A stretch of DNA of 49,462 bases from a virus (lineage: Duplodnaviria > Heunggongvirae > Uroviricota > Caudoviricetes). The notes under the pieces were generated by a model. That model had not been told where the DNA came from. It searched no databases and worked only from the letters and a program-made list of their open reading frames with translations. Of this stretch, positions 3,407 to 46,872 are shown piece after piece. Positions within the stretch are counted from its first letter, which is position 1; every line of letters starts with the position of its first letter. The position numbers and the translations under genes are program-made. The stretch covers positions 1 to 49,462 of IMG/VR virus record IMGVR_UViG_3300010365_001407; one strand, written 5' to 3'.

Positions 3407-5512
3407 TTACTCTTCTTTTTCTTCTTTTTTCTTTCTTGTTTTCTTAACTTCTACAAAAGAAATATCATTTTCCTTATCATAGTCTAAGTTAAGTGTAGTT
3501 CCTTGTTTAGGATTGTTCTCAATGATGTATTCAGTCACAGTATCATCAATCCATCTTTGAATTGCTCTTTTCAATGGTCTTGCACCAAACTTAGGATCAT
3601 ATCCAACAGTAACCAAGTGTTCTTTTAAGTTTTCAGAGATAGTTAATTCATAACCAATATCAGAGCCTCTTTGTAGAGTTTTAACTAATTCTAAGTCAAC
3701 AATTTTAAGAATTTCTTCTTTACCTAAATCTCTAAAGTAGATGATTTCATCCAATCTATTGATAAACTCAGGTGCAAATTTCTTAGATAGTTCTTTTTCT
3801 AAGATACCTTTGATTTCTTCAACTCTTTTGTCTGCTTTACCTTTAGTAGAGAATCCAACTCCAGTTCCAAAATCTTTAACTGTTTTAGTTCCAACATTTG
3901 ATGTCATTAATATAACACAATTCTTAAAACTAACTTTTCTACCATGTGAATCAGTAACATGACCATCATCTAACATCTGTAAGAATAAATTAAATACATC
4001 AGGGTGTGCTTTCTCAATTTCATCAAAAAGAATTACTGAATAAGGTTTTCTTCTGATTTTGTCTAAGAAGTTTGCGTCTTCATACCCAACATACCCAGGT
4101 GCAGCACCTTGAATTCTTGTTAATGATATTTTCTCCATATACTCAGACATATCTAATCTGATTAAAGCATCCTCAGTTTCAAACAAATATTTAGACAATT
4201 GTTTTGCCAATTCTGTTTTACCAACTCCAGAGTTACCAATTAAGATACCACTAAAGATTGGTTTGTTTGGATCCTTCATACCAACTCTACCTCTTTGAAT
4301 AGATTTAACAATTTTCTTAACTGCATCATCTTGTCCAATAACTTTACCAGCAATGTTATCATACATCTTAGCAAGTTTAGTATTCTCATTTTGATTTACT
4401 CTATGAGCAGGAATACCAGTAATCATTGCAACTACTTCTGCAACATTTTCCTCTGTTACCGTTTCTTTGTTCTCAATACAATACTCTTCCCATTTTTCTT
4501 TTTCAATATTCAAAGACTTTTCAAATTGTTTCTCAGTATCTCTTAACTTAGCAGCATCTTCATACTTTTGTTGTTTGATAACAAGATTTTTCTTTTCTCT
4601 AATCTCTGTAAGTTTAGTTTCAAGTTGAGTAATTGCTTCTGGAACTACAATATTTGAAATGTGAACTCTTGCACCAGCTTCATCTAAAGCATCAATAGCT
4701 TTATCAGGTAAGTGTCTATCAGACATATATCTTACCGTCAAGTCAACACAAGCAGCAATTGCTTCTGGTGTATAAACTACATTGTGGTGGGACTCATATT
4801 TATCTTTAATATTGTTAAGGATTTCTAAAGATTCTTCTGGAGTAGCTGGTTCAACAATTACTTTTTGGAATCTTCTTTCTAATGCAGAATCTTTTTCAAT
4901 ATGTTTTCTGTATTCATCAAGAGTTGTTGCTCCAATGATTTGGATTTCACCTCTTGCTAAAGCTGGTTTAAACATATTAGAAGCATCCATAGAACCAGAT
5001 GCACCACCTGCACCAATCATAGTGTGTATTTCATCAATAAACAAGATAATGTCTGGTTGGTTTTCAACTTCAGCCATAAGAGCTTTAATTCTCTCCTCGA
5101 ATTGTCCCCGATACTTCGTCCCCGATACCATTGCTGCCAAATCCAACATAACAACTCTTTTATCAAAGAGAATTCTACTAACTTTTCTTTCAACAATTCT
5201 AATTGCCAATCCTTCTGCAATTGCTGATTTACCTACTCCGGCCTCTCCTAAAAGTATCGGATTATTTTTCTTTCTTCTTGATAAAATTTGAGATACCCTT
5301 TCAATTTCCTTTTCTCTACCAACAATAGTATCAAGTCTTCCTTCTGCAGCCATTTTTGTTAAGTCTCTAGAGTAAGTATCTAAGACAGGTGTATTAGATT
5401 TTTCATTACTTGATTTTTTAGGATTTCCAAACTTGTTATCATATTCATCATCATCATCTTCTAAAGATGCTTTAATTTCAAATGATTTTTTAAGATTTTC
5501 TTTATAAGTCAT
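3407..5512 (-). CDS. clpC: ClpC/ClpB-family AAA+ ATPase lacking N-terminal Clp-repeat domain
   Basis: Two AAA modules (GEAGVGKS/FIDEIH; GNSGVGKT/LFDEIEKAH), UVR-type coiled coil (QQKYEDAAKLRD), FGARPLKR; NBD1 begins about 40 aa from the start. Confidence 0.9.
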   Translation of the reverse strand: MTYKENLKKSFEIKASLEDDDDEYDNKFGNPKKSSNEKSNTPVLDTYSRDLTKMAAEGRLDTIVGREKEIERVSQILSRRKKNNPILLGEAGVGKSAIAEGLAIRIVERKVSRILFDKRVVMLDLAAMVSGTKYRGQFEERIKALMAEVENQPDIILFIDEIHTMIGAGGASGSMDASNMFKPALARGEIQIIGATTLDEYRKHIEKDSALERRFQKVIVEPATPEESLEILNNIKDKYESHHNVVYTPEAIAACVDLTVRYMSDRHLPDKAIDALDEAGARVHISNIVVPEAITQLETKLTEIREKKNLVIKQQKYEDAAKLRDTEKQFEKSLNIEKEKWEEYCIENKETVTEENVAEVVAMITGIPAHRVNQNENTKLAKMYDNIAGKVIGQDDAVKKIVKSIQRGRVGMKDPNKPIFSGILIGNSGVGKTELAKQLSKYLFETEDALIRLDMSEYMEKISLTRIQGAAPGYVGYEDANFLDKIRRKPYSVILFDEIEKAHPDVFNLFLQMLDDGHVTDSHGRKVSFKNCVILMTSNVGTKTVKDFGTGVGFSTKGKADKRVEEIKGILEKELSKKFAPEFINRLDEIIYFRDLGKEEILKIVDLELVKTLQRGSDIGYELTISENLKEHLVTVGYDPKFGARPLKRAIQRWIDDTVTEYIIENNPKQGTTLNLDYDKENDISFVEVKKTRKKKEEKEE

Positions 5513-15173: not shown

Positions 15174-15836
15174 TTATTTTAACCATTTTCTAATAGAATT
15201 ATCACTAACTCCATATTTTCTACCTGTACCACTATATCCAAACTCTAAAATATCTATATTTAATTGTTCTAAACTTGGTCTTTCTACTTTTCTTCTACTA
15301 TATTTTTCACACTTATTACATTTTTCAGAAATGTTTGTTATAATACAACCACATTTACAATAGTTTACTTTTTTATTTTTTAAGTTTTTACCAGCAAATG
15401 TATCTAAACCAGCATTACAATTAGGACATACTATTCTTAAATTTTCTATTCTATTATCATCATGTATACCATTTTTATGGTCTATAATTAATGATATTTT
15501 CATTCCATTCCAATTTTCATCTTGTCCACATAAACAACATTTTCTTTCTAATAATCCTTCATCATATAATCTCTTTTTAAGATGTCCTCTATTATATGAT
15601 GATTTTTCTACTAATATATCTGATAAATCTATTTTATTATATTTATTCAAATTAATCATTTTTTCATAATTATGAGAAAAATGTTTTGTGTCTATATCAT
15701 ACAAATCAATATACTTCTTTAATGTCTTTGAATTGCCACCTGATGATCTTATTCCCATTTTCTCTAAACACTCTTTTTGAGTTTTAGACTTTCTAACAAC
15801 TTCTTCTAAATTTTCTTTTAACCAAATGTTTTTCAT
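15174..15836 (-). CDS. HNH homing endonuclease inside tRNA array 1
   Basis: CCLCG...IDHKNG...DNRIENLRIVCPNCNA; C-terminal HTH-like GVSDNSIRKWL; stop codon abuts tRNA-Pro. Confidence 0.9.
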   Translation of the reverse strand: MKNIWLKENLEEVVRKSKTQKECLEKMGIRSSGGNSKTLKKYIDLYDIDTKHFSHNYEKMINLNKYNKIDLSDILVEKSSYNRGHLKKRLYDEGLLERKCCLCGQDENWNGMKISLIIDHKNGIHDDNRIENLRIVCPNCNAGLDTFAGKNLKNKKVNYCKCGCIITNISEKCNKCEKYSRRKVERPSLEQLNIDILEFGYSGTGRKYGVSDNSIRKWLK

Positions 15837-16327: not shown

Positions 16328-16396
16328 TTAATGTGATATAAATACATAGTTAGTCTGGTTCGTGATACGATCCTGATCCTGCATCGGCTGCGGCAT
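16328..16396 (-). CDS. leader peptide 1 MPQPMQDQDRITNQTNYVFISH
   Basis: ATG CCG CAG CCG ATG CAG GAT CAG GAT...CAT TAA; first 9 residues are only M/P/Q/D, matching array-1 tRNAs. Confidence 0.75.
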   Translation of the reverse strand: MPQPMQDQDRITNQTNYVFISH

Positions 16397-16431
16397 AACT
16401 ACTATATTTTTATATCACATTTTCATAATAC

Positions 16432-16490
16432 TATATATTAACTTTTTATTGTTCCTTTTTGTTTTTTCTTATTTTTATACTACAAAAGTA
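16432..16490 (-). promoter_or_regulatory. tandem promoters for array 1: late-type TAATATATA (16432-16440) and host-type TACTTTTG (16483-16490)
   Basis: Same arrangement as upstream of arrays 2 and 3. Confidence 0.7.
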
Positions 16491-19628: not shown

Positions 19629-19718
19629 TTTGCTCTATTTTGCTAATATTAAATACAAAGATATAACTTTTTTTATTCTATACAAAGAATATAGTAAATT
19701 ATTTTTAATATATAACAT

Positions 19719-24002: not shown

Positions 24003-24581
24003 CTATTTTATTTCTAAAAGATTTTCATGTATTTCTCTATGACAATTTGCACATACTAAAATACACTTATCTAATTCATCTTTAATCTTATCCCAAGCTG
24101 TACACATATTTTTAGATAGTGTAAAATCTTTTTTAGAGGGATCCAAATGGTGAAACTCTAATGCGGATACACACTTATTATATTCACATATAACACATTT
24201 ACCACCTTTATATTCTACTGCTTTTTCTTTTGTTCTTTTTCTAAATGTTTTTGTTCTTATATAGTTAGACTTTCTTCTATCATCATCACTATCAAATGTA
24301 AACTTTTTATTCTCACCATATTTGGTAACGGTACTTCTACCTACACCAAATTCCTTCATTGTTTCCTCTATAGAATTTAGTTTATAAAATTCTTTCAATT
24401 TTTCAATTTCATCTTTATCTAACTTTTTACCAGAATTAAGACCTATATCATTTAACATTTCACTCTTACAAAAGTAAGAAATTAAACTTCTAGAACAATT
24501 TAATTCTTTTTGTATTTCTCTATAGCTTTTACCTTGTTTTCTTAGTAAAATTATATTTTCTTTTTTAGAACCTTCAACCAT
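24003..24581 (-). CDS. HNH homing endonuclease inside tRNA array 2
   Basis: N-terminal HTH; CVICEY...LEFHHLDP...CILVCANCHREIH. Confidence 0.9.
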   Translation of the reverse strand: MVEGSKKENIILLRKQGKSYREIQKELNCSRSLISYFCKSEMLNDIGLNSGKKLDKDEIEKLKEFYKLNSIEETMKEFGVGRSTVTKYGENKKFTFDSDDDRRKSNYIRTKTFRKRTKEKAVEYKGGKCVICEYNKCVSALEFHHLDPSKKDFTLSKNMCTAWDKIKDELDKCILVCANCHREIHENLLEIK

Positions 24582-26292: not shown

Positions 26293-26305
26293 ATCTTAGT
26301 TTTTG

Positions 26306-26386
26306 TACGCCTGGAGGGACTCGAACCCTCACACCTTTCGGCACTAGCTCCTAAGGCTAGCGTGTCTACCATTCCACCACAGACGC
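26306..26386 (-). tRNA. tRNA-Leu (TAG)
   Basis: CTAGC-CTTAGGA-GCTAG, variable arm, A73. Confidence 0.93.
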
Positions 26387-26395
26387 ATATTTTTG

Positions 26396-26482
26396 TACCC
26401 CTACCCAGACTCGAACTGGGAACGTATCATTGTTTTCCACGGTGTCTTAGACCGCAAGCTTTACCAATTTGCTCATAAGGGC
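26396..26482 (-). tRNA. tRNA-Leu (AAG)
   Basis: GCGGT-CTAAGAC-ACCGT, long variable region, A73. Confidence 0.8.
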
Positions 26483-26487
26483 TTTTG

Positions 26488-26568
26488 TACCCCAGATAGG
26501 ATTCGAACCTATATTTTCAGTTTCCAATTACCCGTAGTTGTTTAGAAGACAACTGGGACTACTGAGGC
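26488..26568 (-). tRNA. D-armless tRNA-Arg-like (TCT) with very long variable region
   Basis: GCCTCAG/CTGGGGT acceptor; GTTGT-CTTCTAA-ACAAC; T arm ATAGG-TTCGAAT-CCTAT; same 81-nt layout as 24877..24957. Confidence 0.6.
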
Positions 26569-27324
26569 ATATTTTAACCATTTTCTTATAGAGTTATCAC
26601 TAACTCCATATTTTCTACCTGTTCCACAATATCCTAATTCTTTAATATCTATTTCTAATTGTTCAATTGATGGTCTTTCTTTTATTCTTAGTGATTTAGT
26701 ATGACATGTATTACAATTTTTTGATGTCTTTTTTATTTGTTTACCACAAGAACAAATATTTTTAATTTTTAATTTTTTAACTTTTATTTTTTTAACTTCT
26801 TCTAATTCACTTCTATTCAAATATTTCTCATTTCTATATTCTGATTTACTACTTTTATTTAGGTTACCACCACAATATGTAGATGTTTGACTATGACAAT
26901 TTGGACACAATATTCTTAAATTATCTATTCTATTATCCATATTATTACCATTTATATGGTCTAAATGAAATGATAGTGGTTTACCACACCAGCTTTCTAT
27001 ATTACATAATTCACATTTACTATCTTTTAATCCCTCTTTTATTAATCTAATTTTAAGATGATGTGTACTTGTATAAGTAGAGTTCTCAACCAAAATATCT
27101 GATATATCTGTTATTTTATTAACAGGTTTATATCTCAAACCAGTATTCCAACCTTGTCCTGTAAAGTGTGATATATCTATATCATATAAATTAATATACT
27201 TTTTTATTGTCTTATAATTACCACCTGCTGGCCTAATTTCTAATCTTCTACAAACTTCTGCAGTGGATAAAACCTCCTTTACTATTTTTTCCAACTCTTC
27301 TTTATCAATCTTATACTTACTCAT
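26542..27324 (-). CDS. HNH homing endonuclease inside tRNA array 3
   Basis: CELCN...HLDHINGNNMDNRIDNLRILCPNCHSQT; paralogue of 15174..15836; C-terminus overlaps the tRNA at 26488..26568. Confidence 0.9.
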   Translation of the reverse strand: MSKYKIDKEELEKIVKEVLSTAEVCRRLEIRPAGGNYKTIKKYINLYDIDISHFTGQGWNTGLRYKPVNKITDISDILVENSTYTSTHHLKIRLIKEGLKDSKCELCNIESWCGKPLSFHLDHINGNNMDNRIDNLRILCPNCHSQTSTYCGGNLNKSSKSEYRNEKYLNRSELEEVKKIKVKKLKIKNICSCGKQIKKTSKNCNTCHTKSLRIKERPSIEQLEIDIKELGYCGTGRKYGVSDNSIRKWLKYASVVPVVF

Positions 27325-27395
27325 AATTAAAATTATTTTAGTATATATATTAAAAAGTTGTGTCTTCCTTTTTATTTAACTTTTCAGTTCAATTG

Positions 27396-27469
27396 TATCT
27401 GGGACGGGAGTCGAACCCGCAGCTTACAAGGCTTAAACTTGTTGTGTTTTCCAGTTTCACCACCCAGAC
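27396..27469 (-). tRNA. tRNA-Leu (TAA) lacking the long variable arm
   Basis: Leu-type D loop; ACAAG-TTTAAGC-CTTGT; 5-nt variable region. Confidence 0.75.
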
Positions 27470-27474
27470 ATTTG

Positions 27475-27558
27475 TACCGAGAGCGGGACTTGAACCCGCA
27501 CGCCACAAGGGCACAAGATTTTAAGTCTTGCATGTACTACCAATTTCATCACCTCGGC
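27475..27558 (-). tRNA. tRNA-Leu (TAA)
   Basis: CAAGA-CTTAAAA-TCTTG, variable arm, A73. Confidence 0.93.
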
Positions 27559-27568
27559 ATTAATTTTA

Positions 27569-27670
27569 ATTAATAGTAGGACTTGAACCTACACTAAGTT
27601 TATTTCATCCTTAGCCATATCCTCTATATCTCTGTATAAAGTTAGGTGTTTACCAGTTCCACCATATCAA
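27569..27670 (-). pseudogene. tRNA-Leu-type body with expanded, non-canonical anticodon/variable region
   Basis: D arm GGTGGAACTGGTAAACAC and T arm GTAGG-TTCAAGT-CCTAC present; no standard anticodon arm. Confidence 0.5.
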
Positions 27671-27673
27671 TTG

Positions 27674-27747
27674 TGACTCCGACAGGGCTCGAACCTGTGA
27701 CCCACAGATTAGAAATCTGTTGCTCTATCCATCTGAGCTACGGAGCC
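27674..27747 (-). tRNA. tRNA-Arg (TCT)
   Basis: Canonical, ACAGA-TTTCTAA-TCTGT. Confidence 0.93.
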
Positions 27748-27752
27748 AATTT

Positions 27753-27790
27753 AAAACAAAAAACCCAAAACTTTTTGAGTCTTGGGTTTT
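27753..27790 (-). terminator. attenuator terminator upstream of tRNA array 3
   Basis: Minus strand AAAACCCAAGACT-CAAAA-AGTTTTGGGTTTT-TTGTTTT. Confidence 0.85.
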
Positions 27791-27813
27791 GTTATTTGTT
27801 ATACTTTAATTGA

Positions 27814-27915
27814 TTACCAACTAAAATCATTTCCAAATTGAGCAAAACCCATCCCTTGTCTCAAAGATAAGACAGTCAGTGTTAAGTTTCTTCTATTTAG
27901 AATTGTTGTGTTCAT
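27814..27915 (-). CDS. leader peptide 3 MNTTILNRRNLTLTVLSLRQGMGFAQFGNDFSW
   Basis: 33-aa ORF starting 6 nt after TAATATATA; Leu x5 (CTA,TTA,CTG,TTA,TTG) and Arg x3 (all AGA) within residues 6-19. Confidence 0.8.
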   Translation of the reverse strand: MNTTILNRRNLTLTVLSLRQGMGFAQFGNDFSW

Positions 27916-27920
27916 AATTG

Positions 27921-27980
27921 TATATATTAAAGTTTTATTCTCTCTTTTTGTTTATTTGTTATTTTTATAGTACAAAAGTA
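27921..27980 (-). promoter_or_regulatory. tandem promoters for array 3: TAATATATA (27921-27929) and TACTTTTG (27973-27980)
   Basis: Motif recurrence. Confidence 0.7.
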
Positions 27981-28005
27981 TAAAAAGTTTTCTAATGTAC
28001 CTAAT

Positions 28006-46625: not shown

Positions 46626-46676
46626 AGGTGACTTTTTTAATCTACCAAATCTTTTTGTAATTATTTTTAATCTTTG

Positions 46677-46749
46677 TAGCGGGAACAGGACTCGAACCTG
46701 TGACCTCAAGGTTATGAGCCTTGCGAGCTGCCTACTGCTCTATCCCGCG
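46677..46749 (-). tRNA. initiator-type tRNA-fMet (CAT)
   Basis: CGCGGGA 5' strand with C1:U72 mismatch; CAAGG-CTCATAA-CCTTG. Confidence 0.88.
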
Positions 46750-46783
46750 ATATATTGTTTTGTGAGACTATCTCTCAACTTTG

Positions 46784-46854
46784 TAGCGTAGCGTGGATTC
46801 GAACCACCCCTTGGAGTTTATGAGACTCTAATGCAACCTTTACACTTTAACGCG
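46784..46854 (-). tRNA. divergent fMet-like tRNA (CAT)
   Basis: CGCGT start with 1:72 mismatch; CT-CAT-AA loop; weaker acceptor stem. Confidence 0.65.
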
Positions 46855-46872
46855 ATATATGTTTTATAGTTC

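Follow-up and report, generated by a model that had tools for sequence, protein, structure and literature searches.

A putative leader-peptide attenuator preceding a phage Arg/Leu tRNA gene block

The attenuators of enterobacteria (trpL, hisL, leuL, thrL and pheL, and the leaders of ilvGMEDA and thr) combine a translated leader that is rich in regulatory codons with alternative 1:2, 2:3 and 3:4 RNA pairings, in which region 1 lies over those codons, and an intrinsic terminator located before the first structural gene. Here we describe an element with the same components that lies ahead of a block of Arg and Leu tRNA genes in phage DNA. The DNA analysed is a stretch of 49,462 nucleotides (nt), referred to as the window, which forms the first 49 kb of the 113-kb IMG/VR virus record IMGVR_UViG_3300010365_001407; window coordinates are used unless stated otherwise. 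The record holds six units, each composed of leader, terminator and tRNA genes, and the Arg/Leu unit (unit 3), all of whose features (leader, terminator and tRNA block) are on the minus strand, is the one analysed here. We think it likely that unit 3 is a functional trp-type leader-peptide attenuator that senses the decoding of Leu and Arg codons and gates a block of Arg(TCT) and Leu(TAA, AAG and TAG) tRNA genes, and the sequence suggests that the phage probably makes these tRNAs only when ribosomes read Leu and Arg codons slowly.

Unit 3 has no sequence relationship to the enterobacterial leaders, and it lacks a Shine-Dalgarno-like sequence, having two promoter-like boxes upstream. The ilv and thr leaders are multivalent, sensing several amino acids in one leader, as unit 3 would also do. 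Whereas the enterobacterial attenuators control biosynthetic enzymes, unit 3 would control phage tRNA genes, with the charged tRNA that is sensed being related to the product, and whereas the terminating ribosome of the trp system covers region 2, the stop codon of unit 3 is well downstream of that region. The Escherichia coli pheST attenuator likewise places a gene of the translation apparatus under a leader peptide with cognate codons, although its product is a synthetase, while those of unit 3 are tRNAs, in parallel units that are each matched to their own block. T-box riboswitches (RF00230), located ahead of translation-related genes, also respond to tRNA charging with a choice between a terminator and an antiterminator, but they do so by direct binding of uncharged tRNA to one specifier codon and without translation, whereas unit 3 has an open reading frame (ORF) with many cognate codons.

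When the window was searched with the Rfam leader families (Trp_leader, His_leader, Leu_leader, Thr_leader and Phe_leader), no match at the gathering score was found, and the best sub-threshold leader match was to His_leader (17.2 bits against 49 required, E = 1.2). The T-box model had no match in the window, nor did one appear within 27740-28000 when E-values as high as 10 were admitted. Rfam matches below threshold, among them ohsC and His_leader, were dismissed as being at chance level. No description of leader-peptide attenuation of tRNA genes was found in the full-text literature, in which coverage of subscription journals was limited; the one paper joining 'tRNA operon' with 'leader peptide' concerns pheL frameshifting.

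The leader, the terminator and their alternative pairings

The features of unit 3, in the direction of transcription, are the following (MFE, minimum free energy).

27973-28004, minus strand: promoter-like motif, consisting of TTAG (28004-28001), a 20-nt spacer and TACTTTTG (27980-27973)
27921-27930, minus strand: TTAATATATA box, a promoter-like or start-context box of the phage, 5 nt before the leader ATG
27814-27915, minus strand: leader ORF MNTTILNRRNLTLTVLSLRQGMGFAQFGNDFSW, with ATG at 27915 and stop codon TAA at 27816-27814 (33 codons plus stop)
27883-27902, minus strand: region 1, predicted 5' strand of the anti-antiterminator, at codons 5-11 (ATT, CTA, AAT, AGA, AGA, AAC, TTA), pairing with 27851-27831
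27859-27900, minus strand: regulatory codon run, codons 6-19, with Leu codons CTA, TTA, CTG, TTA and TTG and three Arg codons, all AGA
27857-27874, minus strand: inner 7-bp hairpin at the tip of the 1:2 stem-loop (MFE and centroid folds)
27843-27851, minus strand: region 2 core TGGGTTTTG, 5' strand of the antiterminator, inside the ORF at codons 22-25
27803-27827, minus strand: spacer hairpin of 10 bp, with the leader stop codon in its loop (MFE and centroid folds)
27783-27791, minus strand: region 3 CAAAACCCA, common to the antiterminator and the terminator 5' arm
27750-27790, minus strand: intrinsic terminator, with a 13-bp stem at 27790-27760 (dG about -15) and a U-rich tail (TTGTTTT)
27673-27747, minus strand: tRNA-Arg(TCT), which opens the block proposed to be controlled (ARAGORN and Rfam)
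26305-27671, minus strand: remainder of the block, comprising a tRNA-like element, two Leu(TAA) genes, a putative HNH gene, a second Arg(TCT), Leu(AAG) and Leu(TAG)

The initial annotation of this DNA, made from the sequence letters, had listed CTA, AGA, AGA, TTA, CTG, TTA, TTG and AGA within codons 6-19, and this reading was confirmed on the minus strand. Leu and Arg account for eight of codons 2-21 (binomial p = 9e-4), the background being 11.2% as given by the residues of the long ORFs of the record. Two of the Leu codons are unusual for this DNA, CTG making up 0.6% and CTA 10% of Leu codons, and both are read by the Leu(TAG) of the array.

It had also been proposed that TGGGTTTTG (27851-27843) is the exact complement of CAAAACCCA (27791-27783), which overlaps the terminator 5' arm, and we find that the two are indeed exact reverse complements; TGGGTTTTG follows the codon run as claimed, with a 7-nt gap after the last AGA. 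The resulting 2:3 helix is a perfect 9-bp duplex (-11.1 kcal/mol), and the antiterminator (2:3) and terminator (3:4) pairings are mutually exclusive. When the 131 nt upstream were dinucleotide-shuffled 20,000 times, 0.86% of the shuffles had a perfect complement to the arm of at least 9 nt (P = 0.0086), and among 15 strong terminator-like sites in the record the 9-nt upstream complement is the longest, the other sites having 0-7 nt. The terminator stem ends 13 nt before the start of tRNA-Arg(TCT), and this gap leaves no room for a further promoter.

A third pairing was overlooked in the initial annotation. Codons 5-11, which contain CTA, AGA, AGA and TTA, can pair with the antiterminator strand, the partner segment at 27851-27831 including TGGGTTTT, and the classical 1:2, 2:3 and 3:4 layout is thereby complete. 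As modelled, the regulatory codons would be region 1, TGGGTTTTG region 2, CAAAACCCA region 3 and the terminator 3' arm region 4. Folding of 27925-27753 gives a dG of -45.5 (z = -5.13 against 200 dinucleotide shuffles), and the MFE and centroid folds share three elements, namely the long 1:2 stem-loop, the spacer hairpin and the terminator; the 1:2 stem-loop alone (27907-27826) has a dG of -21.5 (z = -4.46). When the transcript is ended at 27775, before the 3' arm, the best fold switches to the 2:3 helix (-29.8 against -28.0). Folding at equilibrium with a ribosome mask on the full-length transcript was dropped as proof of the switch, since the terminator formed every time, and such folding is informative on the truncated transcript only.

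The effect of ribosome position was modelled with a mask that extended 15 nt to the 5' side and 12 nt to the 3' side of the first base in the A site. All nine antiterminator pairs can form with the A site at codons 1-18 (eight of nine at codon 12), and their formation is blocked at codons 19-28; Leu6, Arg8, Arg9, Leu11, Leu13, Leu16 and Leu18 therefore lie within the productive stalling zone and Arg19 lies outside it. With the ribosome at the stop codon, the masked stretch is about 27831-27804. Direct occlusion of the terminator arm by a ribosome in this position was considered and rejected, the footprint ending approximately 13 nt short of 27790.

These features suggest the following course of events. 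Transcription would start from the upstream promoter-like boxes, and we infer that the 33-codon leader is translated while it is being made, with the coupling and timing that attenuation entails. With fast decoding of Leu and Arg(AGA) codons, the ribosome would pass codons 5-11 and TGGGTTTTG on its way to the stop codon, region 1 would re-pair with region 2 behind it, and region 3 would be left free for region 4; the 3:4 terminator would then form and RNA polymerase would stop 13 nt before tRNA-Arg. Were charged tRNA-Leu or tRNA-Arg(UCU) in short supply, which would be the physiological signal, the ribosome would be held at codons 6-18, where it would cover region 1, and the free region 2 would pair with CAAAACCCA once this had been made, preventing the terminator and allowing the tRNA block to be transcribed. 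A response in this direction would amount to a demand-driven feedback on the phage's own tRNA supply.

Conservation of unit 3 and recurrence of its design

With the neighbouring exonuclease gene as query, only one of the relatives recovered (denoted here by L numbers), L002, carried tRNA units, L003-L005 being without tRNAs nearby. In L002 the 250 nt that contain promoter, leader and terminator are almost identical to those of the window, from which they differ by a small indel and by a synonymous substitution of TTG to TTA. The neighbouring protein, by contrast, has just 72% identity, and the divergence of the tRNA-Arg gene is plain to see. Further copies were retrieved from metagenome and viral contigs with a pattern from the 5' untranslated region, which leaves the switch region unbiased, and alignment A1 contains 13 distinct homologues. 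All 13 have the same ATG and an ORF that ends 29-34 codons later, with coding indels in frame, and all keep Leu at the positions equivalent to 6, 11, 13, 16 and 18 as well as Arg19.

All three helices are kept in the 13 homologues. Antiterminator pairing is found in 98.3% of the cells of A1, a figure that falls to 57-60% if one strand is shifted by a column. At the end of this helix five sequences have a U-A pair, six have C-G and two have C.A; in the C-G state, a non-synonymous substitution in the leader (ATG or CTG to CCG, Met or Leu to Pro) is accompanied by a change from A-U to G-C in the terminator. Both sides have changed in three pairs of the spacer hairpin, which has 85.5% of cells paired, and in one pair of the 1:2 helix, which also has U-G/U-A switches and whose core pairs are conserved; the inner 7-bp hairpin is paired in 98.9% of cells. 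Unguided RNAalifold recovers the inner hairpin and the antiterminator helix from A1, a result due in part to the poor alignment of the terminator 3' arm. The covariation appears to be real but thin, since the sequences in A1 are close.

Two sets of metatranscriptome contigs extend across the region; they give no starts, ends or levels, and the parts that they leave uncovered carry no meaning. A 347-nt contig of a close relative, present in two libraries of one study, spans 27898-27565, which takes it from the interior of the leader past the terminator to tRNA-Arg and the element behind it, and a library from a second study has a contig covering 27791-27484. Contigs that cross the terminator are a weak hint of read-through molecules.

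The six units of the record and their tRNA blocks are these.

Unit 1: leader MPQPMQDQD..., block Asp/Gln/Pro/Met
Unit 2: leader TTTININVITITNCVNNTTS, block Asn/Ser(CGA)/Ile/Val/Cys/Thr
Unit 3: leader MNTTILNRRNLTLTVLSLRQGMGFAQFGNDFSW, block Arg/Leu
Unit 4: leader ...IEAIGGYEAGY..., block Tyr/Glu/Ile(TAT)/Thr/Gly
Unit 5a: leader FKHTSFSKSFKWFSHKF, block Lys/Phe/His/Trp
Unit 5b: leader STTSSSSSSRSS, with CGC, block Arg(ACG)/Ser

Beyond the first residues the six peptides are unrelated in sequence. Leaders and arrays were compared through a score that is the standardised excess of cognate residues, and the best array for each of the six leaders is its own, the true pairing ranking first of 720. 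When four diverged units, those of the relatives L008, L011, L067 and L082, are added, 10 of 10 leaders match their own arrays, and among 500,000 random permutations one equalled the true score and none exceeded it; the array of L067 mixes Leu, Ile, Arg, Val and Asn and has the leader NINRNNNTINLVINNVNTLCVIR, and the leader of L082, LHIAVIKPMAVCQWYPRAI, matches an array of 14 tRNAs. Rare codons also fit the arrays: TCG, which accounts for 0.4% of Ser codons, precedes Ser(CGA), and CGC, at 0.2% of Arg codons, precedes Arg(ACG). By composition unit 3 is the weakest of the six, whereas by structure it is the clearest.

Relatives that cannot be aligned with unit 3 rebuild its design from different sequences. 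In the group of L008, L018 and L022 the leader MKNYNNIMNLLLSNLLLQNNRTENIMSYLL, with its NLLLSNLLL run, precedes five Leu tRNAs; the terminator arm is different (AACCTCAGTCA), and the complementary GACTGAG is located inside the ORF just past the Leu run. When the duplex energy between leader region and terminator 5' arm was computed for 13 units, with 500 shuffles each, a complement of the antiterminator type was significant (p <= 0.02) in nine; for L082 and unit 1 the antiterminator partner includes loop or 3'-arm bases that lie outside this test. Folding before and after region 3 gives the same switch from 1:2 to 2:3 in L006, L008, L067, L082 and units 2 and 5a.

Some of these units have features of their own. 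The ATG beside the TTAATATATA box of unit 1 (16394-16441, minus strand) opens only MKM followed by a stop codon, and the leader with Pro, Gln, Met and Asp begins at a second ATG 35 nt further on; in the relatives L017 (12566-12664) and L032 (3798-3896) the equivalent ATG runs in frame into a 32-codon leader (MKNVNKNIVVMPQPMQDQD...), and the unit 1 terminator in the window differs from that of the relatives. In unit 5a an HNH-like gene, recognized by eye, is located between the terminator of the leader and the Lys, Phe, His and Trp tRNAs. L009, L010, L011 and L020 (for example L010 9730-10100) have the promoter motif of the tRNA units, followed in order by a mini-ORF rich in Tyr, Asn, Glu, Cys and Ile, a terminator, a small protein gene and tRNA-Met, which could be either a unit with an inserted protein gene or an attenuator that also controls a protein.

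Points against an attenuator and rival explanations

Several observations weigh against reading unit 3 as an attenuator of Leu and Arg decoding. Over the whole leader ORF, Leu and Arg make up 8 of 32 residues (p = 0.022), the weakest enrichment among the six leaders. The initial annotation had stressed that the AGA codons match the Arg(TCT) anticodon, present twice in the array; the two Arg(TCT) genes do exist, but AGA makes up 90% of all Arg codons in the record, and the match with this default codon is therefore uninformative. Arg19 lies, in the mask model, too near region 2, since a ribosome held there would cover the antiterminator strand and block pairing, and the sensing of Arg would thus rest on Arg8 and Arg9, which exist only in the lineage of the window and are absent from most homologues; outside this lineage, Arg sensing is doubtful from the alignment. 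A link between the Arg8-Arg9 tandem and the second Arg(TCT) gene was rejected, homologues without the tandem also carrying the second gene. Eight of the nine antiterminator pairs are invariant in A1, so that the covariation of this helix rests on one terminal pair, and in two sequences that pair is the C.A mismatch, although these two look like intermediates toward the C-G state. The leader stop codon is 27 nt downstream of region 2, and a ribosome waiting there leaves region 2 uncovered; for this reason the OFF state needs either 1:2 pairing that re-forms behind the ribosome or a ribosome located inside the 2:3 loop. The same loop also contains the spacer hairpin, which the ribosome would melt, and equilibrium folding does not settle which route to the OFF state is used. 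The metatranscriptome contigs, finally, may derive from DNA carry-over.

It is possible, but unlikely, that the leader senses Leu and Arg while its output does not pass through the 2:3 helix, the hairpin being a leaky terminator or an element of processing or stability, and a stalled ribosome altering Rho access, RNA decay or precursor processing. The match between codons and array supports sensing without showing the output step, the covariation of 2:3 consists of a single pair, and four of the 13 units have no significant complement to the 5' arm, all of which agrees with such an output. Yet the 9-bp complement is improbable by chance (P = 0.0086) and conserved, it is rebuilt with different sequences in non-homologous units and always just 3' of the codon run, and polarity of the Rho type would give the opposite sign, with less tRNA when tRNA is short. 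A reversal of sign would mean that the structure is opened, and read-through permitted, by efficient translation of the leader, with tRNAs expressed only when translation is healthy. In favour of such a reversal is the position of the stop codon, which lies between regions 2 and 3 in the spacer-hairpin loop, where a terminating ribosome would remodel that hairpin. We consider the reversal very improbable, since the terminator arm at 27790 is out of reach of a ribosome at the stop codon, and since it is region 1, not the terminator, that overlaps with the regulatory codons, as is classical for stalling that leads to read-through. Enrichment in the codons of the array itself would also lack a rationale under that sign.

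The modest enrichment of the unit 3 leader when taken alone (p = 0.022 for the whole ORF), the commonness of Leu and the default status of AGA would all suit an ordinary small gene with an ordinary terminator, in which the complement and the Leu/Arg content are coincidental and the tRNAs are expressed by constitutive leakage. That six of six leaders in the record, and 10 of 10 with those of the relatives, best match their own arrays argues strongly in the other direction, as do the probability of the 9-mer (P = 0.0086), the conservation of the structures, and the near identity of the unit in L002 despite the 72%-identical neighbouring protein and the diverged tRNA-Arg; there is in our view little chance that coincidence is the answer. 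Least probable of all is that the 33-residue peptide is itself functional, as a small regulatory or membrane peptide, with the RNA structures merely terminating its gene. Conservation of the ORF in the 13 homologues and an invariant G-F motif would fit such a peptide, but the invariant G-F codons are the antiterminator strand, their 5' neighbour changes from Met or Leu to Pro with pairing restored, the C-terminus varies in length and sequence, and the peptides of the six units, unrelated beyond their first residues, nevertheless each mirror their own tRNA block. Attenuation as first proposed is upheld, at the sequence level, by the conserved ORF, the cognate codons, the terminator, the conserved 9-bp antiterminator, the anti-antiterminator and the recurrence of such units.

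Upstream boxes, the tRNA block and wider meaning

The motif at 27973-28004 shows a tentative resemblance to the Bacteroidota -33/-7 promoter consensus. An extended form, GGTnnATTnnAAA..TACTTTTGTA, is confined within the record to sites preceding tRNA leader units, and it also precedes the leader, terminator and tRNA units of relatives. The TTAATATATA box is present 31 times in the record, against approximately nine copies expected from base composition, and 21 of these have the ATG of an ORF of at least 60 amino acids within 4-35 nt downstream. Examples are at 19705, 22000 and 39078 (plus strand) and at 27930 and 25585 (minus strand), and the box nearly always lies 4-35 nt 5' of a start codon. 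Five of the leader ORFs use the same box as the real genes of the phage, and it is probably, judging by these positions, the phage's own promoter or start box; its distance from start codons would then imply very short 5' leaders. We note that two tRNAs with CAT anticodons (Met or Ile2 type; 46676-46870, minus strand) directly follow a TTAATATATA box and have neither leader ORF nor terminator, so that some tRNAs of the phage are not preceded by a putative attenuator.

The remaining features of the block and its surroundings are as follows.

27568-27671, minus strand: tRNA-like element between tRNA-Arg and tRNA-Leu (Rfam 35.8 bits)
27395-27558, minus strand: two Leu(TAA) genes
26542-27324, minus strand: inserted putative HNH endonuclease gene, its HNH match being below Pfam's cut-offs
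26488-26568, minus strand: second tRNA-Arg(TCT) (Rfam 39.5 bits), missed by ARAGORN, with anticodon loop CTTCTAA
26305-26482, minus strand: Leu(AAG) and Leu(TAG)

The acceptor, D and T arms of the tRNA-like element fit the tRNA model, with 45 nt replacing the 17-nt anticodon arm much as an inserted intron would; ARAGORN reports the element, as Tyr(ATA), only if introns are permitted, and it is 93-100% conserved in relatives. The second tRNA-Arg(TCT) has an unusually long variable region and is also conserved in relatives. Protein genes interrupt the tRNA blocks at 26542-27324, 24003-24581 and 15174-15836, and, in unit 5a, at 58700-59185 in record coordinates (all minus strand); each has its own TTAATATATA box, and the gene at 24003-24581 encodes domains resembling helix-turn-helix and NUMOD domains.

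The number of tRNA genes predicted by ARAGORN is 38 for the window and 47 for the whole record, and Rfam adds several that ARAGORN missed. The record, which has a G+C content of 27%, is rated 15% complete by CheckV, which indicates that its 113 kb are a fragment of a very large phage. Near-identical DNA is present in metagenomes of activated sludge, wastewater and freshwater, and no cultured relative was found, the matches of the region in a blastn search of INPHARED being to tRNA genes alone (73-78% identity). The phage also encodes a ClpB/Hsp104-type double AAA+ protein of 701 amino acids (3407-5512, minus strand), with AAA_2 (E = 1e-58) and ClpB D2-small domain matches.

Phage tRNA genes are usually viewed as constitutive cargo that offsets codon bias or the loss of host tRNAs. 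If each tRNA block has its attenuator, the phage would measure decoding speed codon by codon and make tRNAs on demand, and the trp-type mechanism would extend from amino-acid synthesis to the tRNA pool. This would provide a testable handle on why huge phages carry large sets of tRNAs, and it predicts which tRNAs are limiting in the host. Leader composition would aid annotation by predicting array content, including tRNAs missed by detection programs, and synthetic biology could use the leaders as small, programmable sensors in which the codon run determines specificity. More tentatively, the six parallel amino-acid-specific attenuators might form a sensing network that reports the limiting tRNA species and induces only the matching tRNA block; its triggers could conceivably be codon-usage mismatch, host shut-off or the anticodon nucleases with which hosts defend themselves. 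If it exists, such a network would be a self-tuning circuit for both translation supply and counter-defence, one that is without described precedent for tRNA genes.

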